Positions 19,274 through 22,860 of a stretch of 22,860 bases of DNA are shown one piece after another (within the stretch, counting starts at the first letter, position 1; the number at the start of each line of letters is the position of its first letter). The notes below the pieces were generated by a model. It saw only the letters and a program-made list of their open reading frames with translations, made no database searches and was not told where the DNA came from. Location of the stretch: the IMG/VR virus record IMGVR_UViG_2698536576_000001; one strand, 5' to 3'. The DNA comes from a virus. Its lineage: Duplodnaviria; Heunggongvirae; Uroviricota; Caudoviricetes. Position numbers and translations under genes: made by a program.

Positions 19274-19292
19274 ATTTTAAAACCCAAATTCG

Positions 19293-19316
19293 GGCACCAG
19301 AAATGGTGCCTTTTTT
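19293..19316 (+). terminator. intrinsic terminator after J
   Basis: GGCACC-AGAAAT-GGTGCC hairpin followed by TTTTTT (19311-19316). Confidence 0.65.
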
Positions 19317-19331
19317 ATTTGTGGAGTGAAT

Positions 19332-21728
19332 ATGGCAGTACAGATTTCAGGTGTGCTGAAAGACGGTGCAGGAAAACCAATACAGAACTGCACTATTCAG
19401 CTCAAAGCAAAGCGTAACAGCACCACGGTACTGGTGAACACAGTGGCCTCTGAAAATCCGGATGAAGCCGGGCGTTACAGCATGGATGTTGAGTATGGCC
19501 AGTACAGCGTCATCCTGCTGGTTGAAGGTTTTCCGCCTTCACATGCCGGGACCATTACCGTCTATGAAGGCTCCAGACCAGGTACGCTGAATGATTTTCT
19601 CGGTGCCATGACGGAGGATGATGTCATGCCGGAGGCATTGCGTCGTTTTGAGGAAATGGTGGAAGAAGCGGCACGCAACGCTGAAGCCGCCTCTCAGAGC
19701 GCAGCGGCGGCAAAGAAATCCGAAACGGCTGCGGCATCATCGAAGAACGCGGCGAAAACCTCAGAAACGAATGCAGCTAACAGCGCACAGGCGGCAGCGG
19801 CCTCGCAGACTGCATCGGCAAACTCCGCGACAGCAGCCAAAAAATCAGAAACCAACGCGAAAAATAGCGAGACAGCCGCAAAGACGAGCGAAACCAACGC
19901 AAAGTCCAGCCAGACGGCAGCGAAAACCAGCGAAACGAATGCCAAAGCCAGTGAAACTGCGGCGAAAAATAGCCAGAATGCAGCAGCCGAAAGCGAGAGT
20001 GCGGCAGCTGGTTCTGCGACTTCAGCAGCTGGATCAGCAACTGCTGCGGCTAACAGCCAGAAAGCAGCGAAGACGAGCGAAACTAACGCAAAGTCCAGCC
20101 AGACGGCAGCGAAGACCAGCGAAACGAATGCCAAAGCCAGCGAAACTGCGGCGAAAAGCAGTCAGGATGCAGCAGCTGAAAGCGAGAGTGCCGCAGCTGG
20201 TTCTGCAAGTGCGGCGGCTGCTTCTGCCACTGCATCAGCAAACAGTCAAAAAGCTGCAAAAACCAGTGAAACCAATGCAAAGACAAGCGAGACTGCAGCG
20301 GCGAACTCGGCGCAAGCATCGGCAGCAAGCCAGACAGCAGCTAAAGCAAGTGAGGATGCAGCCAGAGAGTATGCAAGCCAGGCTGCGGAGCCGTATAAAC
20401 AAGTATTGCAGCCGCTTCCTGATGTGTGGATACCATTTAACGATTCGCTGGATATGATTACGGGTTTTTCGCCATCATATAAAAAGATTGTTATTGGTGA
20501 TGATGAAATAACGATGCCTGGCGACAAGGTTGTTAAGTTTAAACGCGCATCGAAAGCAACCTATATTAATAAATCTGGTGTGCTGACAGAGGCTGCCATT
20601 GACGAGCCACGGTTTGAACGTGATGGCCTGCTTATTGAGGGGCAAAGAACGAACTACATGCTCAATTCGGAAAGCCCTGCCAGTTGGGGGCGATCGTCAA
20701 ATATGGATGTTCCCGAAACCGGGACGGATAGTTTTGGTTTTACCTATGGAAAGTTTGTCTGTAACGATTCTCTGATTGGGCAAACCTCAGCCATTAATAT
20801 GGCATCAATTGCTGCAACAAAGTCAGTTGATGTCTCAGGCGATAATAAATACGTGACAACCTCATGTCGTTTTAAAACAGAACTGCAGGTAAGGTTGCGT
20901 ATCCGATTTGATAAATATGACGGTAGCGCAACAACTTTTCTTGGTGATGCGTATATTGATACACAAACGCTTGAAATTAATATGACAGGTGGTGCTTCCG
21001 GTAGAATTACGGCACGAGTCAGGAAGGAGGAAACTACAGGATGGATTTTTGCTGAGGCAACAATTCAGGCAATTGATGGTGAGTTAAAAATAGGCTCTCA
21101 GATACAGTATTCACCTAAGCAGGGAGGGGCAACCGTATCAGGTGACTATATTTATCTGGCTACCCCACAAGTAGAGAATGGGGCTTGTGTATCATCTTTT
21201 ATTATATCAGGAACGACGGCGGCGACTCGTGCGAGTGATATGGTTACGATCCCGACCGAAAACAACATTTATAACAGACCGCTTACTTGTTTGGTCGAGG
21301 TTAACAGGAATTGGGGCGATATTCCTCCTAATGTAGCACCGCGTATTTTTGATTTTTCTGGTGTGCCGCCTATTGAGTCAATCACATACGCTTTTAACAC
21401 AACCGAGAAATATTACGGTCAGCTTTATATGCAAACTTATAAAGCGTCGACAAGTAGTTACGTTTCTAGTTTGTTTACTGGTCGAACGGATGTTCGAAAA
21501 TTCATTGGTGGTTTTAATATTTATTCTGATGGTACTAAACGAGTAGTTTCTAACGGTGAGGCTACTAAAACCATGAAAACGGAATGGACGGGCGTAAAAA
21601 CGCGGACCTTTATTCGAATAGGAGGTCAAGCCACATCAGGGACACGTCATCTATTCGGCCATTTGAGAAATCTTCGTCTCTGGCATAAAGAATTAACTGA
21701 TGCGCAAATGGGGGAGAGTATTAAATGA
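19332..21728 (+). CDS. stf: side tail fibre protein (Stf-like N-terminus, repeat-rich shaft, unrelated low-GC distal domain)
   Basis: N-terminal ~120 aa match lambda Stf as recalled (MAV.ISGVLKDG.GKP.QNCTIQLKA.RNSTTV.VNTV.SENPDEAGRYSMDVEYGQYSVIL...GFPPSHAGTITVYE). Ala/Ser/Thr/Lys-rich repeat shaft. RBS GTGGAG before the ATG at 19332. Confidence 0.88.
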   Translation: MAVQISGVLKDGAGKPIQNCTIQLKAKRNSTTVLVNTVASENPDEAGRYSMDVEYGQYSVILLVEGFPPSHAGTITVYEGSRPGTLNDFLGAMTEDDVMPEALRRFEEMVEEAARNAEAASQSAAAAKKSETAAASSKNAAKTSETNAANSAQAAAASQTASANSATAAKKSETNAKNSETAAKTSETNAKSSQTAAKTSETNAKASETAAKNSQNAAAESESAAAGSATSAAGSATAAANSQKAAKTSETNAKSSQTAAKTSETNAKASETAAKSSQDAAAESESAAAGSASAAAASATASANSQKAAKTSETNAKTSETAAANSAQASAASQTAAKASEDAAREYASQAAEPYKQVLQPLPDVWIPFNDSLDMITGFSPSYKKIVIGDDEITMPGDKVVKFKRASKATYINKSGVLTEAAIDEPRFERDGLLIEGQRTNYMLNSESPASWGRSSNMDVPETGTDSFGFTYGKFVCNDSLIGQTSAINMASIAATKSVDVSGDNKYVTTSCRFKTELQVRLRIRFDKYDGSATTFLGDAYIDTQTLEINMTGGASGRITARVRKEETTGWIFAEATIQAIDGELKIGSQIQYSPKQGGATVSGDYIYLATPQVENGACVSSFIISGTTAATRASDMVTIPTENNIYNRPLTCLVEVNRNWGDIPPNVAPRIFDFSGVPPIESITYAFNTTEKYYGQLYMQTYKASTSSYVSSLFTGRTDVRKFIGGFNIYSDGTKRVVSNGEATKTMKTEWTGVKTRTFIRIGGQATSGTRHLFGHLRNLRLWHKELTDAQMGESIK
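19876..20300 (+). repeat. in-frame tandem repeat, 189-bp unit (63 codons), about 2.2 copies, inside the stf shaft
   Basis: Near-identical DNA copies start at 19876, 20065 and 20254 (GC(A/C)GC(G/A)AAGACGAGCGAAAC(C/T)AACGCAAAGTCCAGCCAGACGGCAGCG...). The protein shows AAKTSETNAKSSQTAAKTSETNAKASETAAK... twice. Confidence 0.85.
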
Positions 21729-22006
21729 AAGATTTAACACTTAAATTTGCCGACAGGGCCGATTTTTCGGCCTTTATGGATAGCACTGGCTATTATGATG
21801 ATGAGTCGATGCAGGATGATATTCTTATTGACGTGATAGGTAACGTGTACAAAGAAACCGGAGAACTGAATGAAGATGGCGAACCGGTATGTGTTAAGGA
21901 AGACGGATATTTTGTAAACGTGCGCATCATTAATGATTCGCAAATATCGTCATTATTCGATGAATACGTGGTTGCTGTTGAGCATCAACTTCGTGGCTGG
22001 ATGTGA
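21725..22006 (+). CDS. small acidic hypothetical protein (candidate fibre assembly/adaptor factor or DNA-mimic-like protein)
   Basis: 93 aa; the ATG overlaps the stf stop (ATGA). About 22 Asp/Glu against about 8 Lys/Arg; low-GC codon usage like the distal part of stf. Confidence 0.5.
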   Translation: MKDLTLKFADRADFSAFMDSTGYYDDESMQDDILIDVIGNVYKETGELNEDGEPVCVKEDGYFVNVRIINDSQISSLFDEYVVAVEHQLRGWM

Positions 22007-22015
22007 GGAAGAAAA

Positions 22016-22860
22016 ATGGCTACATCGACAGTAATTCCTGATGACATCAAAACGCTAAAATCCGACGTTAGCAAATTAAAAAACGATCAAGGAAGCTACG
22101 CAACAAAATTATATGTAGACAGCAAAGATGAAATCGTTGGTGACTGGTCTGCTTCATGGTATCAGCAGGTATTGCCAACTAGCGGAGCTATATTTGGGAG
22201 AAAACTCCGCTCAACTCACAGGACGGCAGGTGTTGAGGATGCGTATTGCGAACTATACCTCAAAAAATGGATAGACAGTCCAGGTAACGCAATGGCGCGC
22301 CTTAACCTGAACGATAACGGGACAAACATTTGCTGGGACTTTACCAACCTTTATGGCGGTACGATGATTTTTCCCGGTGACAGCGGATACCTCAAAATGG
22401 GTAACTGCCTTATGTCATACAGCAAGCGTGGAAGTAACGCGCTTATTAAATTTGATTACACCGACACATTACAGATCAAATATGCCAATCATGGGTCAAC
22501 CATGACATTAAACACACAGGGAACCGCTTATGCTGGTGTTACTGCTCAATTGTGGGGCAACTCCAGCCGTCCTGTTGTTTATGAAGTCGGTGTTGATGGT
22601 GGCGCTTATATGTTCTATGCGCAGAAAAATACCGATAACACCTATATGTTAAGCGTTAATGGTGCATGTCATGCCACCGCATTTAACCAGCATTCCGACC
22701 GGGATCTGAAAGACAACATTCAGGTGATCGATAATGCAACCGACCGCATCCGTAAAATGAACGGCTATACATACACGCTTAAAGAAAACGGTATGCCCTA
22801 TGCTGGTGTCATTGCACAGGAAGCTCTGGAAGCAATCCCAGAAGTTGTAGGTTCCGCAAT
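22016..22860 (+). CDS. tail fibre/tailspike-like protein with C-terminal peptidase S74 intramolecular chaperone domain (3' end beyond window)
   Basis: Hand translation from the ATG at 22016 (GAGGA 7 nt upstream) is open to the window end (at least 281 codons). From about 22694 it reads SDRDLKDNIQVIDNATDRIRKMNGYTYTLKENGMPYAGVIAQEALEAIPEVV, matching the conserved S74 motifs (SD.RLK.NI, GVIAQE...PE.V). Absent from the ORF track because it is incomplete. Confidence 0.75.
   Translation, partial: MATSTVIPDDIKTLKSDVSKLKNDQGSYATKLYVDSKDEIVGDWSASWYQQVLPTSGAIFGRKLRSTHRTAGVEDAYCELYLKKWIDSPGNAMARLNLNDNGTNICWDFTNLYGGTMIFPGDSGYLKMGNCLMSYSKRGSNALIKFDYTDTLQIKYANHGSTMTLNTQGTAYAGVTAQLWGNSSRPVVYEVGVDGGAYMFYAQKNTDNTYMLSVNGACHATAFNQHSDRDLKDNIQVIDNATDRIRKMNGYTYTLKENGMPYAGVIAQEALEAIPEVVGSA

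Follow-up and report, generated by a model that had tools for sequence, protein, structure and literature searches.

A short tail fibre with an S74 chaperone domain encoded behind stf in a lambdoid morphogenesis module: a probable distal subunit of the side fibre

T5-like phages with two ltf genes, that is, with two-gene lateral fibres, were noted in 2016, AKFV33 being among them (PMC4728585). In IrisVonRoten (Bas32), AlphaFold-Multimer modelling mounted Gp24 on the proximal fibre Gp22, with the galectin-like end domain of Gp22 protruding sideways (PMC11990801), and in SIA3lw mass spectrometry of phage proteins identified the product of ORF42 as well as that of ORF44, an S74 protein (PMC12752171). 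We noticed the three-gene order of IrisVonRoten (Gp22/23/24), AKFV33 (orf137/136/135) and SIA3lw (ORF42/43/44) at the 3' end of the IMG/VR virus record IMGVR_UViG_2698536576_000001 (Caudoviricetes; 22,860 nucleotides (nt), the whole stretch being hereafter called the window), where the side tail fibre gene stf is followed by a gene for a conserved protein of 93 amino acids (aa), p93, and by an open reading frame (ORF) for a short fibre with an S74 intramolecular chaperone (IMC) domain. We consider it probable that the product of this ORF belongs to a side (lateral) tail fibre made of several proteins, as its distal, receptor-binding subunit.

IrisVonRoten Gp22 is 46% identical to the Stf of the window over 746 aa, p93 is homologous to Gp23 (38%, E=2e-24), AKFV33 orf136 and SIA3lw ORF43, and Gp24, SIA3lw ORF44 and AKFV33 orf135 share an N-terminal motif with the fibre described here, these three ending in an IMC of the form SD(R/S)RLK...GxIAQE. 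Nevertheless, the third protein is shorter here than in the T5-like cassettes (346 versus 557-580 aa), and the anchor of the first protein is here of the lambda type (phage_tail_N), whereas the T5-like cassettes have the T5 Ltf anchor. Since the fibre head gave no blastp alignment to Gp24, and since Pfam recognised only the S74 domain in the fibre, we detected no relationship between it and the head published for Gp24, which is T-shaped and has two domains. Fibres with 97-99% protein identity are found in the lambdoid phages Tritos, 2G7b, HannyBb and PhiR63_1 and in the RefSeq cluster P0001; in the lambdoid relatives the neighbouring genes correspond to those of this locus (stf, the 93-aa gene, a gene for a 97-aa membrane protein, and pin) and the annotation as a fibre is already present. 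The Stf distal domain of the window is a different allele, approximately 76% identical to that of Tritos.

A second fibre that bears an IMC and is mounted on a first one adds a second specificity in DT57C (LtfA/LtfB) and in phiEco32 (gp14/gp15) (PMC4728585, PMC10713586). The N-terminus of DT57C LtfB (MSRPLMPKSGAMAPYVV...) is, however, unrelated to the motif of the fibre described here, and as regards the N-terminal docking segment of approximately 45 aa that LtfB shares with phiEco32 gp15, no similarity is seen between MSRPLMPKSGAMAPYVVVNRD... of LtfB and MATSTVIPDDIKTLK of our fibre. DT57C also lacks a 93-aa gene between ltfA and ltfB, and LtfA ends in an IMC, whereas the Stf of the window does not. 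The fibre was therefore rejected as an LtfB orthologue, given the unrelated N-termini and the lack of a p93 gene in DT57C; by analogy, it may function like the branched LtfA/LtfB fibre without belonging to that system.

T5 pb1 and the K1F endosialidase also have a C-terminal IMC with a Ser/Lys+5 dyad; a C-terminal helix behind the IMC is predicted by AlphaFold2 for a full-length relative of our fibre (aa 305-344). S74 domains such as these two work in cis, on their own chain. The sequence of T5 pb1 is distant from that of the fibre, being absent from the PDB profile matches up to E=1, and the mature part of our protein would be a very short fibre, in contrast to the long fibre or enzyme-bearing spike of T5 pb1 and K1F. 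The single-chain Stf of mEp460 (1202 aa) has its own C-terminal IMC, and its tip and IMC are 44.6% identical to fibre aa 84-337. In mEp460 this part is fused to the Stf shaft, whereas here it has a gene to itself, which follows p93 and an stf with another end domain; the tip-plus-IMC unit thus occurs in two forms, as part of a shaft protein and as an independent gene. In the lambda-type Stf/Tfa pair, tfa comes right after stf; here p93 takes this place, and a tfa fragment lies further downstream in the relatives, next to pin. Two preprints, one on a lambda-P2 STF chimera and one on Hf4s, proved irrelevant to the cassette.

Anatomy and integrity of the S74 fibre

The fibre ORF, whose ATG lies 9 nt downstream of the p93 stop codon, comprises 281 codons and is free of stops up to the last base of the window, and no competing ORF of at least 50 aa was found on either strand between 22016 and 22860. 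All 281 residues match positions 1-281 of PHROG 4563 ('tail fiber protein', E=3e-177) and, since this profile is 346 positions long, approximately 65 codons of the gene should lie beyond the window. These remaining 65 residues can be seen in Escherichia coli LH85-a (L001, NZ_CP100486), which differs from window positions 19300-22860 by a single nt over 3561 nt (22215 C>T) and in which the gene stops at 346 aa with the chaperone domain complete (...YTVDYSGVTGLLVQVARESDDRITALEEENAELRQRL...). The ORF and its domain assignment are far beyond chance. The precursor has a predicted mass of 38.1 kDa, of which the mature chain (226 aa) would account for 24.9 kDa and the released chaperone for 13.2 kDa. 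The cluster P0001, 99% identical to the query, bears the name 'tail fiber domain-containing protein' and comprises 2132 sequences.

The IMC was recognised by PF13884 (Peptidase_S74, 'chaperone of endosialidase'), which matches aa 227-278 over profile positions 1-57 of 58 (E=7.9e-14; 52.1 bits versus a gathering cut-off of 22). The motif S227-D-R-D-L-K232-D-N-I, preceded by H226, begins at nt 22694, and GVIAQEALEAIPEVV is present downstream of it. Ser227 and Lys232 are each conserved in at least 90% of an alignment of 20 family members, and their spacing equals that of the catalytic pair of T5 pb1, Ser1264/Lys1269 (PMC4690869). In T5 pb1 the upstream folding sensor is formed by Arg1250/Asp1239, from the neighbouring chain; no such pair could be located in our fibre, in which the 25 residues upstream of Ser227 contain no arginine and the closest one that is invariant in the family is R185. 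When the family profile was compared with the PDB, the IMC-bearing chain 6f45 (E=2e-6) and MYRF (7dc3, E=2.4e-3) were retrieved; this search was more informative than that with the single sequence, in which weak matches were obtained for the IMC part only. The IMC is C-terminal in the LH85-a allele and in 19 relatives, and aa 305-344 were modelled by AlphaFold2 in the full-length homologue as one long helix (block-mean pLDDT, a predicted local distance difference test score, of 54-82); in solved IMCs, the long terminal helix forms a trimeric coiled coil.

The initial annotation of this DNA, made from the letters alone, had called the ORF a second fibre gene with a C-terminal S74 domain from nt 22694 and a mature part of approximately 225 aa. 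These claims stand, on the PHROG 4563 match and the full-length LH85-a allele, on the PF13884 match with the quoted motifs at that very position, and on a predicted mature chain of 226 residues, respectively. Neither a lack of S74 support nor an interruption of the ORF was found: the near-identical LH85-a locus continues to 346 aa with the IMC complete, the last 65 codons of the source genome itself being unseen.

The four-part anatomy of the fibre (Table 1) was derived from an alignment of 20 homologues, a PDB profile search and allele comparisons. The N-terminal motif of the family, M-x-T-x-T-V-I-P-x-D-I-x-x-L-K-x-D, is followed by a variable number of TLKSDVS-type heptads; T13, K15 and D17 are invariant among the 20 sequences, and M1, T5, I7, D10 and I11 nearly so. 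This N-terminal part retrieved trimeric coiled coils in the profile search (P22 gp26, E=1.6e-4, and also Lpp and fibritin). The segment of the head formed by aa 36-175 is exchangeable between alleles and found no relative in Pfam, NCBIfam or PDB sequence searches; NCBIfam holds no family for the fibre as a whole, for p93 or for the 97-aa protein encoded downstream. In comparisons with alleles such as L012, L049 and L077, the synonymous divergence (dS) is saturated in aa 36-175 (1.6-3.6) and approximately zero in the flanking N-terminal anchor and IMC, a pattern on the basis of which we conclude that the head is exchanged by recombination between a conserved anchor and a conserved IMC. Where measurable, the ratio of nonsynonymous to synonymous divergence (dN/dS) is 0.05-0.25, and therefore the gene is under purifying selection.

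This selection bears on the question of whether the gene could be a decaying remnant of a defective prophage in the source genome, with no functional product. The position of the 3' end beyond the window, the truncated allele in L055 (194 aa) and the N-terminally shortened forms of 254 aa in the protein database would agree with such a remnant; nevertheless, we judge it very improbable, as all 281 visible codons are open and a single nt separates the sequence from an intact 346-aa allele, the upstream morphogenesis module is intact, and the dN/dS values are those of a gene under purifying selection.

Table 1. Coordinates of the S74 fibre, its parts and the neighbouring features in the window.
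Feature	Position (nt)	Strand	Remarks
S74 fibre ORF	22016-22860	+	ATG at 22016; open to the end of the window
Shine-Dalgarno sequence GAGGA of the S74 fibre gene	22005-22009	+	Direct sequence reading; overlaps the p93 stop codon (22004-22006)
Fibre aa 1-35	22016-22120	+	N-terminal motif MATSTVIPDDIKTLKSD (putative docking peptide), then a short heptad coiled coil
Fibre aa 36-226	22121-22693	+	Beta-rich head, presumed receptor-binding part
Fibre aa 176-226	22541-22693	+	T4 gp34-like beta module directly before the predicted cleavage site (4uxe/5nxf/5nxh, E ~1e-5)
Fibre aa 227-281	22694-22860	+	First 55 residues of the S74 IMC (PF13884), cut by the end of the window
Ser227 codon	22694-22696	+	Predicted scissile residue; from the sequence and the T5 pb1 spacing
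Lys232 codon	22709-22711	+	Predicted dyad partner; from the sequence and the T5 pb1 spacing
p93	21725-22006	+	Conserved 93-aa protein; start overlaps the stf stop (ATGA)
stf	19332-21728	+	Side (proximal) tail fibre, 798 aa; N-terminal virion anchor, Ala/Ser-rich repeat shaft, distal region of approximately 430 aa (nt 20433-21725)
GC-rich hairpin (GGGCACCAGAAATGGTGCCT) and T-run	19292-19320	+	Directly after J; hairpin plus T-run at 19292-19311
Protease-capsid fusion ORF	4941-7160	+	739 aa; PHROG 133 'head maturation protease' over its full length, and major-head families

Distribution of the three-gene cassette

Among 5426 complete E. coli genomes, the stretch with p93 and the S74 fibre gene (21700-22860) is matched in 1069, in 481 of them at a coverage of at least 80%, and stf, p93 and the S74 gene are present in one piece in 268. 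The initial annotation had considered an S74 fibre unusual downstream of a lambda-type stf; this is not borne out, since the arrangement is frequent in E. coli genomes and occurs in isolated lambdoid phages too, and the cassette is thus a common alternative to stf-tfa.

In tblastn searches against 50,697 phage records, p93 was found in 179 records, the full-length short fibre in 17 and the Stf distal region in 208. The latter include AKFV33, SIA3lw and the genomes of EdH4, nomo and pangalan (approximately 137 kb), which we take to be rV5-like myoviruses and for which the analysis covered the Stf distal region. The cassette was identified in lambdoid phages (Tritos, 2G7b, HannyBb, PhiR63_1 and others, plaque-forming phages of high identity whose third gene carries a tail fibre annotation), in Nonagvirus (9g-like phages ESCO3, JenP1 and JenP2), in Drexlerviridae (the T1-like phage tuinn, with a shorter third gene, homologues of which are annotated 'chaperone of endosialidase' in several relatives) and in T5-like phages (HMD-P4, AKFV33, SIA3lw and IrisVonRoten), which shows that it travels between phage lineages. 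In tuinn (L094, 3792-4292), the homologue of the third gene has 166 aa and ends inside the chaperone-like region (...GWYGLIAE, followed by the stop codon), after which comes an ORF of 45 aa; the gene may be split or truncated in this plaque-forming phage.

We also inspected 80 IMG/VR prophage loci in which p93 is at least 91% identical to that of the window. In 78 of the 78 that could be evaluated, the gene directly after p93 bears the motif, and it encodes either the 346-aa fibre or an allele of 227-234 aa with the same N-terminal motif. The shorter alleles (L015, L031, L033, L060 and others, approximately 6292-6995) have a longer coiled coil than the 346-aa fibre, and their mature part would be approximately 115 aa long; judged by eye, their C-terminus resembles a divergent chaperone domain (...STSSIRYKH...GLIAEEV...).

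Since many deposited genomes and phages contain annotated genes that are nearly identical, the fibre gene and its cassette are already known in kind, real but ordinary, and they do not change the current understanding of phage fibres. Their description is mainly of use for the correction of annotations, the names in use being 'hypothetical protein', 'endosialidase chaperone' and 'lateral tail fiber chaperone'; the best reading of the family is that of a distal, host-range-determining subunit of the fibre. A logic is apparent in which the first gene carries a lineage-specific anchor, and the third an exchangeable head flanked by a constant plug motif and an IMC. This view of the cassette is useful for the prediction of host range in E. 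coli prophages and for the retargeting of lambda-based delivery particles.

Position of the fibre in the virion

The N-terminus of the first gene changes with the lineage, being a lambda phage_tail_N domain in the window, while in the T5-like phages the gene is placed right after that of the collar protein. The N-terminal motif of the third gene, MxTxTxIPxDIxxLK, is constant across the same lineages (MATSTVIPDDIKTLKSD in the window, MVTKTVIPTDITKLKNE in IrisVonRoten Gp24 and SIA3lw ORF44, MTTYTNIPQDITKLKDE in AKFV33 orf135 and MATVTVIPSDITKLKND in tuinn). A motif that stays constant while the anchor of the first gene varies implies that its partner travels within the cassette.

We hypothesize that three chains of the fibre assemble from the C-terminus, with the IMC templating the trimeric beta structure, as would be expected from K1F and T5 pb1, and that the IMC would then cut itself off between His226 and Ser227 through the Ser227/Lys232 dyad, leaving a mature chain of 24.9 kDa per monomer. 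A separate Tfa chaperone should thereby be unnecessary. With its N-terminal motif, the mature trimer would plug into the Stf trimer where the distal part of the latter is conserved, the 93-aa protein possibly taking part as well, and each side fibre would thereby carry two binding modules, the variable, lectin-like end domain of Stf and the exchangeable head. The target would most likely be a surface polysaccharide, such as the O-antigen. The second fibre would probably be mounted end-on, as a distal extension beside the lectin-like Stf end domain, rather than as a side branch. The initial annotation had suggested a dual or branched host-range module: a dual fibre is plausible, and was modelled for IrisVonRoten (PMC11990801), but the arrangement is not new and the branched geometry is the less likely one.

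Another explanation would be an independent short fibre that sits on the tail tip, on J or at the Stf attachment site, and not on Stf, so that the virion would have two separate fibre sets. With its own N-terminal motif and coiled coil, the protein is complete as a fibre, it is optional, as it is absent from phage 21, and the same S74 fibre is found beside very different Stf distal domains (41-100% identical). We consider this arrangement unlikely, because the same motif is kept despite unrelated tail tips (lambda J-type, T5 collar/pb3/pb4 type, T1-like and 9g-like), because only the N-terminus of the first gene is adapted to the virion in each of those lineages, and because the gene comes right after the stf distal part and p93 in every locus examined.

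The names 'putative lateral tail fiber chaperone' and 'endosialidase chaperone', in use for the homologues of HMD-P4, KurtStettler and ESCO3, would rather imply that the protein acts in trans in the assembly of Stf and is no component of the virion, for which it also speaks that this Stf lacks both a Tfa and its own IMC. We hold such a role to be quite improbable. The S74 domains of K1F and T5 pb1 fold the chain that carries them (PMC4690869), 226 of the 346 residues form a coiled coil and a fibre-tip-like beta region homologous to the mEp460 Stf tip and to T4 gp34 modules, the S74 protein of the third gene of SIA3lw was found among the phage proteins by mass spectrometry (PMC12752171), and phage 21 has this type of Stf without the third gene. 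Since the IMC acts in cis and two thirds of the chain are fibre, 'chaperone' is probably the wrong name for the protein as a whole.

Several observations weigh against a distal subunit mounted on Stf. Its mounting and its presence in the virion are argued from the homologous T5-like cassettes. The Stf distal domain is 41-100% identical among loci in which the S74 fibre is nearly identical, and strong conservation in this region is limited to the first approximately 110 and the last approximately 35 residues, so that the docking site would have to lie in these two segments or on p93. In phage 21 and Lambda_ev058, the Stf distal domain, p93 and the 97-aa membrane protein are present and the third gene is missing, which means that a phage can do without the distal fibre, and that p93 must serve Stf somehow and is more than an adaptor of the third fibre. 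As the window ends inside the IMC, the intactness of the gene in the source genome is inferred from its relatives, and the prematurely ended 194-aa allele of the related prophage L055 (6292-6876) indicates that gene decay occurs in some lysogens. Structure prediction was of little help: the AlphaFold2 monomer model of the full-length homologue P0001, built from the 20-sequence alignment, was poor (pLDDT 51.8, predicted template modelling score 0.25) and gave no Foldseek match in the PDB at E <=0.001. A monomer model is unusable here, since the fibre is expected to be an intertwined trimer.

We tentatively entertain the further idea, which is more doubtful than not, that the N-terminal peptide, the conserved Stf junction and the 93-aa protein form a portable 'plug and socket' for swapping IMC-bearing heads in at least four siphovirus lineages; the 93-aa protein would then represent a novel type of joint or chaperone in fibres, in place of Tfa for lectin-ended Stf. 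The role of p93 as an exclusive adaptor of the third fibre was rejected, as phage 21 and Lambda_ev058 keep p93 without that gene; p93 may be a chaperone, a cap or a joint of Stf.

Neighbouring genes

The three genes form a co-oriented, tightly packed trio after the hairpin that follows J (Table 1), the position of which is that of the annotated terminators in phages 21 and mEp460. A scan for promoters and terminators between 19000 and 22860 gave counts at chance level, except for this convincing hairpin and T-run. In the window, no tfa was found after stf and no lom between J and stf.

Stf was identified by PF08400 (phage_tail_N, aa 3-133, E=1.8e-67) and by PHROG 1419 over its full length, and its aa 436-636 match NCBIfam NF048003 (GTA_spike_fiber, 48.2 bits versus a cut-off of 36). 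Its distal region ends in a strongly conserved tail, ...RHLFGH(L/V/I)RN(L/F)R(L/I)WHK(E/A)LTD..., and the middle of this region is highly variable between alleles (41-100% identity), as would be expected for a second receptor-binding surface. Pfam and PHROG revealed neither a Tfa partner nor an IMC for this Stf. In LH85-a (L001, 3633-6029), RefSeq splits stf into a pseudogene fragment and two coding sequences, while the DNA translates as an intact ORF of 798 aa; the split seems to be an artefact of annotation that arose in the Ala/Ser repeats.

The gene for p93, which the initial annotation had passed over, was found behind this stf distal domain in all loci read, across phage lineages, and is its most constant partner. 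The sole match of PHROG type is to a family of unknown function (PHROG 1361), and p93 has no Pfam or NCBIfam match. AlphaFold2 predicted a small alpha/beta fold (pLDDT 79) with no informative neighbour in the PDB.

In the relatives (L001, 7400-8511; L004, 5584-6695), the fibre gene is followed by the gene for the 97-aa protein, a two-transmembrane membrane protein according to the annotators of phage 21, then by a truncated tfa fragment and a pin-family invertase, which suggests that an invertible stf/tfa segment gave way to the cassette while its recombinase stayed behind.

The window holds a complete lambdoid morphogenesis module, intact upstream of stf, with small and large terminase, portal, a protease-capsid fusion, tail completion, major tail protein, tape measure, L, K, I and a J of 1174 aa in which all the J domains are present. 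The listed start of the 739-aa protease-capsid ORF overlaps the end of the portal gene.

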